4,449 nucleotides of DNA. Origin: a virus. Lineage: Duplodnaviria > Heunggongvirae > Uroviricota > Caudoviricetes. Made by a program: the position numbers and the translations under genes. Below the pieces are notes generated by a model. It made no database searches and was not told where the DNA came from. It worked only from the letters and a program-made list of their open reading frames with translations. The stretch lies in IMG/VR virus record IMGVR_UViG_2778261509_000009. The stretch is one strand, 5' to 3'. Below are positions 150 through 4,098 of the stretch, piece after piece (within the stretch, counting starts at the first letter, position 1; each line of letters opens with the position of its first letter).

Positions 150-455
150 TCACATCCAACTTTTTTGATAAGCGGAAAGTTCTCCAGCCATTGCATCCTT
201 GTAAAGTTGATGGGCTGGCCATGGATAGTCACTAAAATTTAGACATACTGAGTAAAACCCGTTGAGATTGGCTGGTTTTCCTCTTCTAAGGTGTTCATAA
301 ATGGCTGTTTTACCAGTACCTTTTCTTCCAAGAACCAACCAAGCCCTACTTTCAATAATATCCTTTATCGCCGGTAGCTTAAAAAAATAGGTCTGTAAGT
401 CCCGATCTGTTTCTGCTGAAACTTGAAATTCTGGTAGCCAGTCTCTAATGTCCAC
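150..455 (-). CDS. small Walker-A (P-loop) protein, 101 aa; possibly a truncated or minimal NTPase
   Basis: ORF from the six-frame track. GTG start at 455 preceded by a strong SD (minus strand reads GTAAAGAGGAAAAT-GTG). Translation contains LVLGRKGTGKTAI, which fits the Walker A pattern GxxxxGK[ST]. No clear Walker B follows and the ORF is too short for a complete ATPase domain. Coding sequence is AT-rich by eye compared with the replication genes. Confidence 0.55.
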   Translation of the reverse strand: MDIRDWLPEFQVSAETDRDLQTYFFKLPAIKDIIESRAWLVLGRKGTGKTAIYEHLRRGKPANLNGFYSVCLNFSDYPWPAHQLYKDAMAGELSAYQKSWM

Positions 456-770: not shown

Positions 771-1193
771 TCACTTAAATAGATACCGAACATTTCCCTG
801 ATAAAACGACAATATGCGCTGCATAACTTCGCTCTTCCGGCACTCGCGACAGATTATGTTTAGACGACTGTCGTAGCGACGTATTTCTCCATCAGGTAGT
901 GACCAGATAAGGTCCGGATCAACCACAGCGGGTTTCTTCACCTTCGCCCTAGAGAGTTTTTTGCGGGCATTTTGCCAGTCCTTTCGTGCCTGTTCAGACG
1001 GGAATAACCCGTAGCCGGAGTTGTATACATAACCACTGGCAACCAGCTCTCTGGCAAGAATGCTCATCAGATATCTTGTCGCACCTGTTTTAGCTTCCAA
1101 CTGTCGTAATGTCTCGCGACCGCTCTGGCGCACAAGTTCGACCACCTGCTCTTTAATTTTTTCCCGCTCTTCCTGTGTAAAAACTTTTGCCAC
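771..1193 (-). CDS. hypothetical 140-aa protein immediately downstream of the replication initiator; N-terminus looks like a winged-helix/HTH-type DNA-binding region (by-eye impression only)
   Basis: ORF from the track. GTG start at 1193 preceded by a near-consensus SD (minus strand reads TAAGGAGGACTT-GTG). Begins 40 nt after the initiator stop, same strand. N-terminal stretch TQEEREKIKEQVVELVRQSGRETLRQLEAKTGATRYLMSILARELVASGYV has the helix-turn-helix look of small regulators. No specific family recognised. Confidence 0.75.
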   Translation of the reverse strand: MAKVFTQEEREKIKEQVVELVRQSGRETLRQLEAKTGATRYLMSILARELVASGYVYNSGYGLFPSEQARKDWQNARKKLSRAKVKKPAVVDPDLIWSLPDGEIRRYDSRLNIICRECRKSEVMQRILSFYQGNVRYLFK

Positions 1194-1233: not shown

Positions 1234-2199
1234 TTATCCCCTGAAACCAGGCGGAATTTCTGTATCCGGTTCAGAAATATGATTCACACAACGCTGTACA
1301 GGTGAACGTCCCAAGCGGATGACCAGTTCGTCCCATTTTTCGCGGAGTTTTGACGGGCTCATGATGTTTTTTACCCAGAATGGATCTCGCTGTACCCGAC
1401 CAAACATTTCGCAAATTTGTCTGTGGCTTCTGCCATCCAGCATCCGCATTGTGCGCACGTCATTGGCCCAGGCTGTCCAGTTAGGCTCTTTTGGTCGCAT
1501 GATCTCTCCATCGTCGCTGGCAGCCTGTTCGTAAAGGTTCACGATCCGCCCCCAAATCCACTGCGCACACGCCAAATCCTCCCTGCTACCCCACTGGCGT
1601 TTTTTCGCACTAAACACAACCGCGTCGGGGTTCCGGGTTAAAAAATCCTGTTCAGCGGTCTGCGGGTCCGGTTGCGAAGCTTCCGGACGAAAAGTGTTTT
1701 TATTCTCTGTAGTAATCTCTGTTGTATTCTCTGTAAGATCATCAGGCCATTTTGACCCGATGACATTGGGTCGTTTTGAACCAATGGAGCGTTTCATTTT
1801 GACCTCTTCCATCGTGTCATTTTGACCTGATGGAGCGGCGCATTTTGAACCGATGGATTCGTTCAATTTGCCACCATCTAAAAGCTCGCTCCCATAGTTG
1901 ATCGTGTAGAAATTGGTCATATCGCGCTTTGATTTATTGAGCTTTTCACAACGCAAAAGCCCCAGCGTTTTCAGACTTGCAAACGCGCGCTTTAACGTTG
2001 ACTCTGACCAGAATGGGAACTGTTCCAGCCATTGTTCCGTTGTGTTGTAAATCCAGCGAACACCATCACATTCCATGCCGGAATTGGTATCTCTCAACCA
2101 GTAATGCAACTGCTGCAACACAATGGCTTCATTTAAGCCAATCTTCATCGCAAGCTGTGTGTTTATAACCAGTGGGCGTTCAGCAAAAAGAAGGCTCAT
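1234..2199 (-). CDS. phage replication initiator (functional analogue of lambda O; iteron-binding origin-recognition protein)
   Basis: Long minus-strand ORF. The origin-like repeat array lies inside the coding sequence and encodes a repetitive low-complexity linker (SIGSK..SIGSK..VIGSK, TENTTEITTEN), as in lambda where ori sits within O. N-terminal region (AMKIGLNEAIVLQQLHYWL...WSESTLKRAFASLKTLGLL) resembles winged-helix origin-binding domains. Gene order Cro, cII-position gene, initiator matches lambdoid early operons. The track ORF begins at a TTG (2253); I place the start at the first ATG (2199, MSLLFAERPLV...), which overlaps the upstream gene by 20 nt. The start remains uncertain. Confidence 0.8.
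   Translation of the reverse strand: MSLLFAERPLVINTQLAMKIGLNEAIVLQQLHYWLRDTNSGMECDGVRWIYNTTEQWLEQFPFWSESTLKRAFASLKTLGLLRCEKLNKSKRDMTNFYTINYGSELLDGGKLNESIGSKCAAPSGQNDTMEEVKMKRSIGSKRPNVIGSKWPDDLTENTTEITTENKNTFRPEASQPDPQTAEQDFLTRNPDAVVFSAKKRQWGSREDLACAQWIWGRIVNLYEQAASDDGEIMRPKEPNWTAWANDVRTMRMLDGRSHRQICEMFGRVQRDPFWVKNIMSPSKLREKWDELVIRLGRSPVQRCVNHISEPDTEIPPGFRG
1701..1736. repeat. three tandem 12-bp repeats (TATTCTCTGTAG / TAATCTCTGTTG / TATTCTCTGTAA); candidate AT-rich unwinding element of the origin
   Basis: Read directly. Period is exactly 12 bp. Immediately adjacent to the iteron array on the side that is downstream in the initiator gene's orientation, matching the lambda ori layout of iterons followed by an AT-rich region. 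Confidence 0.6.
1748..1863. repeat. iteron array: five direct repeats of ~23 bp with core CATTTTGA(C/A)C(N)GATGGA; candidate origin of replication
   Basis: Copies begin at 1748, 1772, 1795, 1818 and 1841 (spacings 24, 23, 23, 23). A degenerate sixth copy (CAATTTGCCACC) begins at 1864. The third copy diverges in its 3' half. Located inside the replication initiator coding sequence. Confidence 0.8.
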
Positions 2200-2701
2200 A
2201 ATTCCATCCAGCTTTTTGTTGGTATTGCAGTCGATACGCAAGTTTGAAAGCAATTGCTTTTTCTATAAGTTCGTCAGTTTCACGATCCACTACGGCAGGA
2301 TCAGCAAAAAGCAGTCCGGACTCCACCACATCGCCATATTCTTTGTTTAACCCGGCGATCATGTACGTGATGCTTTTTCCGTCACTAATTTCACGATACA
2401 ACCTGAAATCATTAATCCGGATAGCCTCCATAATTGCAGGCACTAGCGCCGTGAACTTTTCACGCTTATCCCTAGTGTCGATAGCCTTCCAGCGTTCGAA
2501 TATCTTCACTCGATTAACGCCAAGCGCTCGCTGATCAACCGCGCCACCTTCATCTGTGACACGCTGAACATCGATGTTCGGGCGCTCTTTCAAAGCCCAG
2601 AATGCTTCAGTGATTAATATCGTCGCCTGCTCCTGTGTCATTCCTGGTCGACATATCCAGGCATCCAGAGCCTCACGAGCCTGTTCAGGAGTGATTTTCA
2701 T
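2180..2701 (-). CDS. hypothetical early regulatory protein in the cII position (173 aa); possibly YdaT/CII-like, not verified
   Basis: ORF from the track with an ATG start at 2701. The start lies inside the last codons of the Cro-like gene (17-nt overlap; minus strand reads AATGAAAATCACTCCTGA), and the 3' end overlaps the initiator start by 20 nt, consistent with a tightly coupled operon. Functional assignment is by synteny only. Confidence 0.75.
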   Translation of the reverse strand: MKITPEQAREALDAWICRPGMTQEQATILITEAFWALKERPNIDVQRVTDEGGAVDQRALGVNRVKIFERWKAIDTRDKREKFTALVPAIMEAIRINDFRLYREISDGKSITYMIAGLNKEYGDVVESGLLFADPAVVDRETDELIEKAIAFKLAYRLQYQQKAGWNYEPSFC

Positions 2702-2912
2702 TGTTCAACCGCCCCGCCCGCTTCGTCTTACGATATTCGTCATAAACTTTGGGATCATACTGAAGCTCCCCGCCAGATGCCTCCTGTAGACGCATCGCGC
2801 GACCTTCAGGAACCAGTATCCCCCAAGCAGCAACACTTGCCAGTCTCACTCCTGCGGCATTGGCAAGCTTTGTTTTGCTGCCAAAAAAAGTAATTGCGTC
2901 AGCTTTAAGCAT
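2685..2912 (-). CDS. dicC: Cro-like small DNA-binding protein, DicC-type (75 aa)
   Basis: Translation MLKADAITFFGSKTKLANAAGVRLASVAAW...GRAMRLQEASGGELQYDPKVYDEYRKTKRAGRLNNENHS matches my recollection of E. coli Qin DicC and the YdaS/Cro-like family. Divergent from the DicA-like repressor. The track ORF starts at a TTG (2915); the adjacent ATG at 2912 has a consensus SD (minus strand reads AATAGGAGGCTTTG-ATG). Confidence 0.88.
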   Translation of the reverse strand: MLKADAITFFGSKTKLANAAGVRLASVAAWGILVPEGRAMRLQEASGGELQYDPKVYDEYRKTKRAGRLNNENHS

Positions 2913-2925
2913 CAAAGCCTCCTAT

Positions 2926-2943
2926 TGTTAGACTTTTCTAACA
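2926..2943. promoter_or_regulatory. operator O1: palindrome TGTTAGA-cttt-TCTAACA in the dicC/dicA divergent intergenic region
   Basis: Exact 7-bp inverted arms with a 4-bp spacer, read directly. The same palindrome recurs at 3437-3454. Lies immediately upstream of the dicC-like SD and overlaps the candidate -10 of the minus-strand promoter. Confidence 0.65.
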
Positions 2944-2970
2944 TTATTGTGCGCGGGATACCTAAGTCAA
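2943..2970 (-). promoter_or_regulatory. candidate sigma70 promoter for the Cro-like/replication operon: -35 TTGACT (plus-strand 2965-2970), 16-bp spacer, -10 AATAAT (plus-strand 2943-2948)
   Basis: Hexamers read on the minus strand. Predicted transcription start near 2936, giving a leader of about 24 nt to the dicC-like ATG. Operator O1 overlaps the -10 and start site. Not experimentally supported. Confidence 0.4.
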
Positions 2971-2992: not shown

Positions 2993-3400
2993 ATGGATAC
3001 AAGAACCCTAGGCCAGCGAGTTCTGGCGCGACGAAAAGAATTACGCTTAACACAACGAGAAGCTGCGCGCCTCGCTGGGGTTGCTCACGTCACAATTTCA
3101 CAATGGGAAAGAGACGAAACCCAGCCAGTCGGAAAACGATTGTTTGCTTTAGCGGATGCTCTGAAGTGCTCACCTACATGGCTAATGTTTGGTGACGAAG
3201 ACAAGGCACCAGTGCCGGCACAAGAACTTCATGTGGAAACAGAGCTAACTCCCAACCACAAAGAATTGATCGAATTATTCGATGCTCTTCCATCTTCCGA
3301 GCAGGAAGCCTTGCTGTCTGAAATGCGCGCAAGAGTAGAAAACTTCAACAAACTCTTCGAAGAAATGCTTAAAGCGCGTAAAAATAAATCAATAAAATAA
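2993..3400 (+). CDS. dicA: XRE-family HTH repressor, DicA-like (135 aa); prophage immunity repressor
   Basis: ATG start. Classic HTH region LTQREAARLAGVAHVTISQWERDE. Overall sequence (...GKRLFALADALKCSPTWLMFGDEDK...LIELFDALPSSEQEALLSEMRARVENFNKLFEEMLKARK) matches my recollection of E. coli DicA in length and motifs. Divergently arranged with the Cro-like gene. Confidence 0.92.
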   Translation: MDTRTLGQRVLARRKELRLTQREAARLAGVAHVTISQWERDETQPVGKRLFALADALKCSPTWLMFGDEDKAPVPAQELHVETELTPNHKELIELFDALPSSEQEALLSEMRARVENFNKLFEEMLKARKNKSIK

Positions 3401-3568: not shown

Positions 3569-3721
3569 ATGGATACTATCGATCTTGGCAACAGCGAATC
3601 TCTGGTATGTGGCGTGTTCCCCAACCAGGACGGCACGTTCACCGCGATGACGTATACCAAAAGCAAAACGTTTAAAACCGAATCTGGCGCGCGTTGCTGG
3701 TTAGCCAGAAACACTGACTGA
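3569..3721 (+). CDS. ydfA: YdfA-like small protein (50 aa), first gene of the repressor-controlled rightward operon
   Basis: ATG at 3569 preceded by an SD (GGGGAAATGAGGTCAGC-ATG). Translation MDTIDLGNSESLVCGVFPNQDGTFTAMTYTKSKTFKTESGARCWLARNTD matches my recollection of E. coli Qin YdfA, which follows dicA in Qin. The track ORF begins earlier at 3515, but that extension has no homology support. Confidence 0.8.
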   Translation: MDTIDLGNSESLVCGVFPNQDGTFTAMTYTKSKTFKTESGARCWLARNTD

Positions 3722-4098
3722 TGAGGCTGACGATGGAATTTAAAGATTTACCGTCTGATGTACAGAAAACAGCAGCTCATACATTGCATTCTGTGCTGCG
3801 AGAAATCGGGAAAGATATTGCAAGCGAGCCAGCAAAAGATCTGGCCCGGAAAATCAAGACCGCTTTCGTTGAGCTTTATAATGTTGGCACTGACTCTGAA
3901 ACTGTCGAGACCAAGACCGTAAGTTCACCAATATTCTCACTTGAGCCAGGCGTATTATCAGGTGAAATATGCACCGAGATTTCCAGCGAACTGCTTCCGG
4001 TAATACGAGAAGCAATTTGCCGTCGCGGTTTGGATGGAAGTTACGATCATGACGTCCTGCAAGTTCTCAGGACAATGGTGACTTCACTGGGGATTTGA
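3721..4098 (+). CDS. hypothetical acidic protein (125 aa; 121 aa if started at 3733), unknown function
   Basis: ATG at 3721 overlaps the ydfA-like stop by one base (TGATG), suggesting translational coupling. An alternative ATG at 3733 has a GAGG SD 6 nt upstream. No family recognised. Occupies the position where Qin carries ydfB/ydfC/dicF/dicB. Confidence 0.6.
   Translation: MRLTMEFKDLPSDVQKTAAHTLHSVLREIGKDIASEPAKDLARKIKTAFVELYNVGTDSETVETKTVSSPIFSLEPGVLSGEICTEISSELLPVIREAICRRGLDGSYDHDVLQVLRTMVTSLGI

Follow-up and report, generated by a model that had tools for sequence, protein, structure and literature searches.

The 4,449-nucleotide stretch of DNA analyzed here (IMG/VR record IMGVR_UViG_2778261509_000009, from a virus of the Caudoviricetes; the whole stretch is referred to as the window) carries on its minus strand a gene for an O-like replication initiator, and two kinds of direct repeats lie in the middle of that gene. 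We put the probability at roughly 85% that a lambdoid prophage has its replication origin at 1701-1878, within the linker-coding part of the gene for its own initiator. An earlier sequence-only reading had proposed an origin at this place, and that interpretation is supported by the analysis presented here. Judged by its gene content, which includes a cI/cro/cII/O module, the window comes from an E. coli lambdoid prophage and covers its immunity and replication region.

The repeat array and the initiator gene

Direct repeats with periods of 23 bp and 12 bp were reported by two independent repeat searches, one of which, Tandem Repeats Finder (TRF), placed the former at 1774-1857 (3.7 copies) and the latter at 1704-1735 (2.7 copies). 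An iteron pattern (CATTTTGAMCNGATGGA, up to 3 mismatches) matched four times, all within 1748-1857, against an expectation of 0.09, and a 12-mer pattern (TATTCTCTGTAG, up to 2 mismatches) matched three times, at 1701, 1713 and 1725, against an expectation of 0.30; none of 200 shuffles reached four or three matches, respectively. The repeats are thus far beyond chance expectation, and the originally described combination of units at 23-24 bp spacing with three 12-mers is borne out by both the repeat finders and the shuffles. A pattern scan of the window found no second iteron cluster. The parts of the gene are as follows, with the 23-bp units placed in register on the plus strand and the initiator gene lying on the minus strand.

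1234-2199, minus strand: initiator gene, O-like, 321 amino acids (aa), ATG at 2199, stop codon at 1234-1236, PHROG 391
1885-2199, minus strand: N-terminal winged-helix domain (N-domain), aa 1-105, presumed iteron reader, with Ser67 before the invariant Thr68
1675-1875, minus strand: linker coding region, aa 109-175, predicted by AlphaFold2 (AF2) to be disordered, coincident with the putative origin
1856-1878, minus strand: iteron 1 in gene order, plus strand GATTCGTTCAATTTGCCACCATC, degenerate, core CAAATTG
1833-1855, minus strand: iteron 2 in gene order, plus strand GAGCGGCGCATTTTGAACCGATG, gene strand CATCGGTTCAAAATGCGCCGCTC
1810-1832, minus strand: iteron 3 in gene order, plus strand CATCGTGTCATTTTGACCTGATG, gene strand CATCAGGTCAAAATGACACGATG, dyad-symmetric
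1787-1809, minus strand: iteron 4 in gene order, plus strand GAGCGTTTCATTTTGACCTCTTC, gene strand GAAGAGGTCAAAATGAAACGCTC, core only, without outer arms
1764-1786, minus strand: iteron 5 in gene order, plus strand CATTGGGTCGTTTTGAACCAATG, gene strand CATTGGTTCAAAACGACCCAATG, dyad-symmetric
1740-1762, minus strand: iteron 6 in gene order, plus strand CATCAGGCCATTTTGACCCGATG, gene strand CATCGGGTCAAAATGGCCTGATG, dyad-symmetric
1701-1736, minus strand: three tandem 12-mers, gene strand ACAGAGAATACA ACAGAGATTACT ACAGAGAATAAA, presumed DNA unwinding element
1309-1662, minus strand: C-terminal helical domain (C-domain), aa 180-297, homologous to the lambda O C-domain
1237-1299, minus strand: C-terminal tail, aa 301-321, VQRCVNHISEPDTEIPPGFRG, matching the final 21 residues of host DnaT almost exactly

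The six iteron units, at 23-24 bp spacing, occupy codons 108-153, and the core of iteron 6 lies 20 nt before the first 12-mer. The units at 1740, 1764 and 1810 contain an internal dyad, CATCnGG...CCnGATG, as do the iterons of lambda. Closer inspection of the array changes several details of its first description. Five units with a GATGGA core had been listed, and the period and the repeats themselves stand, but the unit at 1795 combines the CATTTTGA core with TCCATC in place of the GATGGA arm, and this TCCATC is the left arm of the adjoining dyad. The degenerate sixth unit exists but extends to 1878, so that the array spans 1740-1878 rather than 1740-1870. The 12-mer stretch had been called AT-rich, and with a G+C content of 31%, versus 48% for the gene, it is so only modestly.

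The gene product matches PHROG 391 ('replication initiation O-like', E=2.8e-93) and shares 98.8% identity with the 'DNA replication protein O' encoded by phage PhiR42_1. In the AF2 model, which has four parts, aa 10-105 form a winged-helix domain, aa 109-175 are unstructured, aa 180-297 form a helical C-domain and the tail is disordered. Confidence scores (pLDDT) were below 50 at residues 109-175, with block means of 23-29 at 111-170 and nearly no secondary structure assigned, while the helices of the C-domain had block means of 66-85. The proposal that the repeats fall in an interdomain linker agrees with this prediction, as the disordered stretch coincides with the repeats. The related claim that they translate into a repetitive linker holds only to the extent that IGSK occurs three times; the peptide is no simple repeat and also contains SGQN, EVKM and GGKL.

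The two structured domains appear to have different affinities. BLASTP aligned aa 147-294 of the initiator with residues 135-270 of lambda O (148 aa, 34% identity, E=5e-28; 8e-18 for the C-domain in tblastn), and this homology starts at the last iteron and the AT-rich tract. Searches of Pfam (E<=10) returned no match to the initiator, including PF04492 (Phage_rep_O) and PF06970 (RepA_N), and neither Pfam nor NCBIfam had a match to the N-domain or the C-domain. An N-domain of the lambda O type was considered and rejected (hhalign probability of 0.07, no PF04492 match). The closest structural neighbor of the N-domain is a RepA_N initiator, and the winged helix has the RepA_N/DnaD-NTD fold, with Ser67 and the invariant Thr68 at the start of a predicted helix, 66-78. 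By sequence comparison, the N-domain belongs to neither the lambda O nor the RepA_N family.

Homologous loci and probable recognition of the iterons

A scan for the N-domain with one genome per species yielded 80 loci, which together with six phage or prophage loci gave 84 distinct sequences. They come from Enterobacterales, Pseudomonas, Desulfuromonas, Campylobacterales, Thiothrix, Acinetobacter, Bacillaceae, Staphylococcus, Lactobacillaceae, Thermomicrobiales and others, and the N-domain family as a whole comprises 4,494 clusters at 50% identity (E<=1e-10). An iteron array directly after the N-domain coding part, followed by 2-5 chained 12-mers, was present in 66 of the 84 loci. A 23-bp iteron period was the most common (45 loci), with 22 bp in 13 loci and 24 bp in 4, and in at least 48 of the 66 loci the first 12-mer begins 17, 19 or 20 nt past the last iteron core. 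The iterons are palindromes around CAAAATG or CAAATTG with lineage-specific flanks (GGTCAAAATGACC, GGGCAAATTGCCC, GGACAAATTGTCC, GATCAAAATGATC and CTGTTCAAAATGAACAG). The 12-mer has the consensus ACWACAGAGANTA in those 66 loci (A-C-W-A-C-A-G-A-G-A-N-T-A; in short form, ACAGAGAnTAC) and hardly varies over hosts that range from Staphylococcus (33% G+C) to Pseudomonas (60% G+C).

Behind the N-domain and the repeats the C-domains vary, being lambda-O-like, DnaD-like or of at least two other types. Phage SfIV presents the reverse case, with the same C-domain as one of the loci, a different N-domain, its own 15-bp repeats and no 12-mers. Because C-domains are exchanged behind them, and because SfIV with its other N-domain lacks 12-mers, the N-domain, iterons and 12-mers evidently travel as one unit. 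The SfIV repeats (1627-1790 of that locus, GTCAAAATCTGACCC, about six copies) occupy the same place in the gene and have a TCAAAA core in common with the iterons, and this array is another specificity module. Two further observations concern the modules themselves. A locus from a Thermomicrobiales metagenome-assembled genome has two tandem N-domain copies in one open reading frame (ORF; L167, 1501-3255), and proteins with two matched stretches, mostly of 400-880 aa, occur elsewhere in the family. The number of 12-mers ranges from 2 to 5 between loci, and it is 3 versus 4 between loci with 100% identical N-domains (the window, L088, L099 and L118 were compared), a difference that points to slippage.

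A link between protein and DNA is seen at residue 67, whose identity follows that of the base flanking the CAA half-site of the iterons in the same gene. The pairs are Asp with G (21/21 loci), Ser with T (28/28), Lys with A (6/6), Arg with A (2/2) and Glu with T (3/3), and the window, with Ser67 and GGTCAA-type iterons, has the second of them. On a neighbor-joining tree of the N-domain built with residue 67 masked, the base state switches at least 13 times and residue 67 at least 19 times. Two loci that differ in the pair (L101, Lys/A; L107, Asp/G) are 91% identical elsewhere in the N-domain. Since residue 67 covaries with the half-site flank in this way, it is very likely that the initiator recognizes the iterons within its own gene. 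The rule predicts that a Ser67Asp substitution would retarget the protein from GGTCAA to GGGCAA, and it would also predict origin specificity and incompatibility between co-resident prophages.

Could the repeats instead matter only as protein or mRNA, for example as a flexible linker or a translational signal, with no role for the DNA in cis? The repeats are indeed translated, Thr-Glu-x-Thr recurs among their products, and 187 of 204 12-mer units share one reading frame. The 23-bp period, however, is not a multiple of three, and the same DNA motif is therefore read in three frames as different peptides; in the window it appears as IGSK, SGQN, EVKM and GGKL, and over all loci the three frames hold iteron cores in about equal numbers (64/74/58). 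Thr-Glu pairs in the 12-mer tracts are encoded by ACA GAG in 129 of 129 cases, whereas elsewhere in the same ORFs ACA makes up 21% of Thr codons and GAG 44% of Glu codons. Variant 12-mer units alter the peptide (PE, SE, AE, TK, TD) yet stay within one mismatch of ACAGAGA, and nine loci read the 12-mers in more than one frame. The existence of a non-coding copy in a Bacillus locus (L160, described below), the covariation of residue 67 with an iteron base and the lack of a matching Rfam family also speak against an explanation of this kind, which the frame, codon and covariation data contradict and which we regard as scarcely credible. Because the cores occur in all frames, ACA GAG is invariant and the variants keep the DNA motif while the peptide changes, the repeats are, as far as these comparisons go, constrained as DNA.

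The distribution and variability of the repeats are in line with these counts. The motif NCAGAGANTA[CA] occurs about 170 times in linkers versus 4 times in all remaining sequence of the 3.3-kb loci, where by our own arithmetic 4 is about the number expected by chance for some 550 kb; two of the 4 lie in non-coding DNA 280 bp upstream of the L160 gene. Among 46 distinct close relatives (viral-contig loci 97-100% identical), variability was 0.022 in iteron columns and 0.012 in 12-mer columns, compared to 0.039 in the N-domain coding part and 0.067 just downstream. Retention of the 12-mers only as a recombination linker at a module boundary was rejected as the main cause because their conservation holds between phyla whose N-domains are about 50% identical, where synonymous sites should be saturated. 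A -1 frameshift at AATAAAAAC, after the 12-mers, was also rejected, as the heptamer is non-canonical and is not conserved in homologues.

Proposed origin opening and helicase recruitment

The least stable 40 bp of the gene, by nearest-neighbor energies, are at 1697-1736 (-44.3 kcal/mol; window mean -53.3, standard deviation 4.3), and they contain the three 12-mers. In homologous loci the 12-mer tract falls within the least stable 1% of the ORF in 46 of 66 cases and within the least stable 5% in 56. A DNA unwinding element is expected to be of low stability, to keep a fixed distance from the last iteron and to lie downstream in the direction of transcription; the tract has these properties, and we take it to be a candidate for one. 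The conservation of the 12-mers exceeds what melting needs, which suggests that one strand may be captured in a sequence-specific manner. Precedents are TrfA on the 13-mers of RK2 and RepE on those of F, both of which bind single strands (PMC4081077, PMC10602881).

An alternative explanation for the 12-mers is that they are bound as duplex by a second factor, be it a host protein or a different surface of the initiator, and that melting occurs elsewhere, for example in an A-rich run just downstream. The specificity of ACAGAGAnTAC across hosts from 33% to 62% G+C, which is more than easy melting needs, and the only moderately low G+C content of the tract fit such sites. On the other hand, in most loci no part of the ORF is less stable than the 12-mer tract, and the only protein part that always accompanies the 12-mers is the N-domain, whose covarying contacts are with the iterons. 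Single-strand binding of repeats in the unwinding region is known for other initiators (PMC4081077, PMC10602881), and for this reason sequence conservation and unwinding are compatible. We therefore consider duplex sites unlikely, albeit the most serious of the alternatives, and the 12-mers are more probably the place of opening.

A second alternative concerns the iterons, which may be initiator sites for autoregulation, copy control or exclusion, acting through titration or handcuffing, with the true origin outside 1701-1878. Plasmid iterons also serve copy control and incompatibility. Some homologues have no repeats in the gene, and an origin elsewhere is thus possible in the family; moreover, cloned lambda origin regions inhibit related phages, as two reports state (PMC3349717, PMC4488673). 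The last iteron, however, stands at a fixed 17-20 nt from the least stable conserved tract in at least 48 of 66 loci, a coupling that marks an opening site rather than an operator. The array is also the sole iteron cluster in the window. Regulatory and origin roles are not mutually exclusive, as the lambda origin also titrates O. Finally, the layout is collinear with the experimentally proven origins of lambda and pSK41 (PMC5703833). Given the coupling of the iterons to the stability minimum, a purely regulatory role is possible but not favored, and we think it quite improbable.

Several observations weigh against the assignment of an origin to 1701-1878. Eight places in the window, all of them intergenic, are less stable than 1697-1736, and the 12-mer tract is only moderately AT-rich, with a G+C content of 31-36%. 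The predominance of one reading frame among the 12-mers may reflect some selection on the Thr-Glu-x-Thr peptide alongside the constraint on the DNA. Chained 12-mers are missing from 18 of the 84 loci, and five Neobacillus/Bacillus genes (L134, L135, L142, L143 and L146) have neither kind of repeat; the N-domain can therefore exist without an origin inside its gene. The copy in the window is chromosomal and may belong to a defective prophage; a truncated ATPase gene lies at the left end of the window. A literature search found no experiment on this origin family. In addition, no P, DnaC or DnaB-like loader gene follows the initiator in the window or in the neighborhood of the related phage mEp460, and because of this lack of a loader-type gene the recruitment of the helicase is unexplained.

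As for the loci that depart from the common layout, the five repeat-less genes encode a short acidic linker, and no iterons or 12-mers occur within 1.5 kb on either side of them. The L160 locus (Bacillus sp. UNC438CL73TsuS30) has a non-coding 12-mer array, CAATACCAGAGATTACTTCAGAGATTAC, at 1190-1250, some 280 bp upstream of the initiator gene, and the linker encoded by that gene contains neither iterons nor 12-mers. This array is either a free-standing origin or a remnant of an older copy of the gene.

A lead on helicase recruitment comes from the C-terminal tail of the initiator, which is near-identical over 21 residues to the end of host DnaT (SEPDTEIPPGFRG versus SEPDSQIPPGFRG) and matches PDB chains 2ru8, 6aep and 9zbt_D as well as positions 160-179 of NCBIfam PRK02854. 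Similar tails, ending ...IPAGFRG/S, close the initiators of SfIV, of two further loci (L002 and L006) and of related enterobacterial phages. A PDB profile search with full-length alignment detected no DnaT homology beyond the tail. The C-domain of DnaT docks on PriA and forms filaments on single-stranded DNA, and the paper that reports this states no function for the extreme tail (PMC13377028). The tail may nevertheless provide a link to the restart primosome or to DnaB-DnaC.

Initiation could then proceed in four steps. Leftward transcription from a pR-like promoter would yield the initiator, and dimers of its N-domain would bind the six 23-bp-spaced iterons (half-site GGTCAA, central A-tract) to give a wrapped complex similar to the O-some. 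Stress from this complex would open the adjoining three ACAGAGAnTAC 12-mers, which start 20 nt past the last iteron core, and one strand would probably be held sequence-specifically, as by DnaA on DnaA-trios or TrfA on the RK2 13-mers; we propose such a hold because the 12-mer sequence is conserved across phyla. The lambda-O-like C-domain and the DnaT-like tail would then bring in the host helicase machinery without a phage loader.

A broader proposal joins these elements, and we offer it tentatively, as somewhat short of an even chance. The ACAGAGAnTAC array may be an as yet unrecognized origin-opening element common to several phyla that is read sequence-specifically by the many unannotated RepA_N/DnaD-like phage initiators of this family, probably as a single strand, with the residue-67 code (Asp-G, Ser-T, Lys/Arg-A) setting specificity and, in enterobacteria, a DnaT-like tail replacing the loader by way of the restart primosome (PriA or DnaB-DnaC). 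The layout itself is textbook. The residue-base rule, the cross-phyla 12-mer and a loader-less, DnaT-tailed initiator were not found in the literature searched. That literature, on origins, iterons and replisome-organizer origins, likewise yielded no description of the TACAGAGA/ACAGAGA element, and it seems that an origin family whose 12-mer is conserved between bacterial phyla has not been described. The combined iteron and 12-mer signature would allow phage and prophage origins to be annotated from sequence alone, and the N-domain family, with thousands of clusters across phyla, has yet to receive a Pfam family. The conserved 12-mer and the loader-less, DnaT-tailed initiator may also serve as handles on origin opening and on helicase recruitment without a P-type protein.

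Related replicons and the surrounding prophage

The closest parallel is with lambda ori and the origins of Stx phages, which have six iterons; there too the origin occupies the middle of the initiator gene, where the linker is encoded. The same tools applied to lambda showed four dyad-symmetric iterons (ATCCCTCAAAACGAGGGA), spaced at 20/24/23 bp, followed by a purine-rich A/T tract and then by the C-domain. Shared with the array described here are dyad-symmetric iterons, four to six in number and 20-24 bp apart, that have a central CAAAA tract, and, after them in the direction of pR, an A/T-rich, purine-skewed tract and the homologous C-domain. In lambda the N-domain and iterons likewise act as one specificity module, and the mechanism of the O-some is established (PMC7466680; bioRxiv 10.1101/2025.04.02.646746). 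The analogy with lambda ori drawn initially thus holds for the order of the parts and the C-domain homology, but the N-domain is unrelated by sequence and is not of the lambda O type, the iteron sequence is different, and there is no P gene and a DnaT-like tail is present. The low-stability tract also differs, in that it consists here of tandem conserved 12-mers, which are more than AT-rich, and in lambda of a plain A-rich run. A likeness of the ACAAAAGA...ACAAAAGA tract of lambda to the 12-mers was considered, but the similarity is too weak to claim.

RepA_N replicons offer a second parallel. Rep of pSK41 binds four Rep boxes in the center of its own gene; its central linker is dispensable, its C-domain is host-specific, and exchanges of the N-domain together with the origin are known from nature (PMC5703833). 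The winged-helix fold, the repeats in the part coding for the central linker and the varying C-domain are common to these replicons (pSK41 Rep, pTZ2162 RepA) and the family examined here. This family, in contrast, has no PF06970 match, is borne by phages and prophages of Gram-negative and Gram-positive hosts, and in the window has a lambda-O-like C-domain where RepA_N proteins have a DnaG-binding CTD; conserved 12-mers are not reported in the RepA_N review (PMC5703833). In phage SPP1, by its published description, oriL, with direct repeats as well as an AT-rich unwinding element, lies inside gene 38 for the origin-binding protein gp38 (PMC6316719), but SPP1 has a dedicated loader, gp39, and a helicase, gp40.

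The 12-mers had also been compared with the 13-mers of oriC, as similar in layout and not in sequence, and the comparison is apt. In oriC (13-mers and DnaA-trios) and in RK2 and F (13-mers), short tandem elements stand beside the last initiator box at a stability minimum, as the 12-mers do here. The period, however, is 12 nt, ACAGAGAnTAC is unrelated to GATCTnTTnTTTT, there is no GATC and no T-run, and the element, at 31% G+C, is not extremely AT-rich and is translated. The likeness to E. coli DnaT (primosomal protein I) is confined by sequence to the last-21-residue tail.

The other features of the window are consistent with its identification as an immunity and replication region.

771-1193, minus strand: DUF977/LygF gene, next after the initiator gene
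2180-2701, minus strand: cII/YdaT-like gene
2685-2915, minus strand: Cro-like gene
2943-2970, minus strand: pR-like promoter, TTGACT-16-AATAAT, consensus match only
2993-3400, plus strand: cI/DicA-like repressor gene

The pR-like promoter match reads leftwards through the Cro-like, cII/YdaT-like and initiator genes, and hence through the putative origin. The Cro-like and cII/YdaT-like genes overlap by 17 nt (2685-2701) and the cII/YdaT-like and initiator genes by 20 nt (2180-2199), which suggests translational coupling along the operon. The DUF977/LygF gene, also labeled 'Ren-like exclusion', is placed where lambda has P and then ren, and it is not kept beside the initiator in other loci. DnaA boxes are not enriched (13 found, 10.9 expected), and a candidate RNA element was dismissed, since Rfam (E<=1) gave no match over the whole window; DicF, by the same lack of an Rfam match, is not in the window.

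Among phage genomes the closest are mEp460_ev081, with 97.6% DNA identity over 70% of the window, PhiR42_1 and HannyBb. In 1,779 of 5,426 complete E. coli genomes the initiator gene was present over at least 80% of its length, and in most of the E. coli records listed the gene is labeled 'hypothetical protein'. Positions 1-686 of the window are not shared with mEp460_ev081, and an ORF within them (150-455, minus strand, 101 aa) corresponds to no more than the first quarter of a P-loop ATPase from the Sll1717 family, which is about 450 aa long; it has a weaker match to an anti-phage protein model and looks truncated or frameshifted. At the other end, on the plus strand (3569-4098), the DicA-like repressor gene is followed downstream by a DUF1391 gene and a PHROG 33007 gene, with dicB further on in mEp460, an order that presumably resembles the dicA-ydfABC-dicB arrangement of the Qin prophage.

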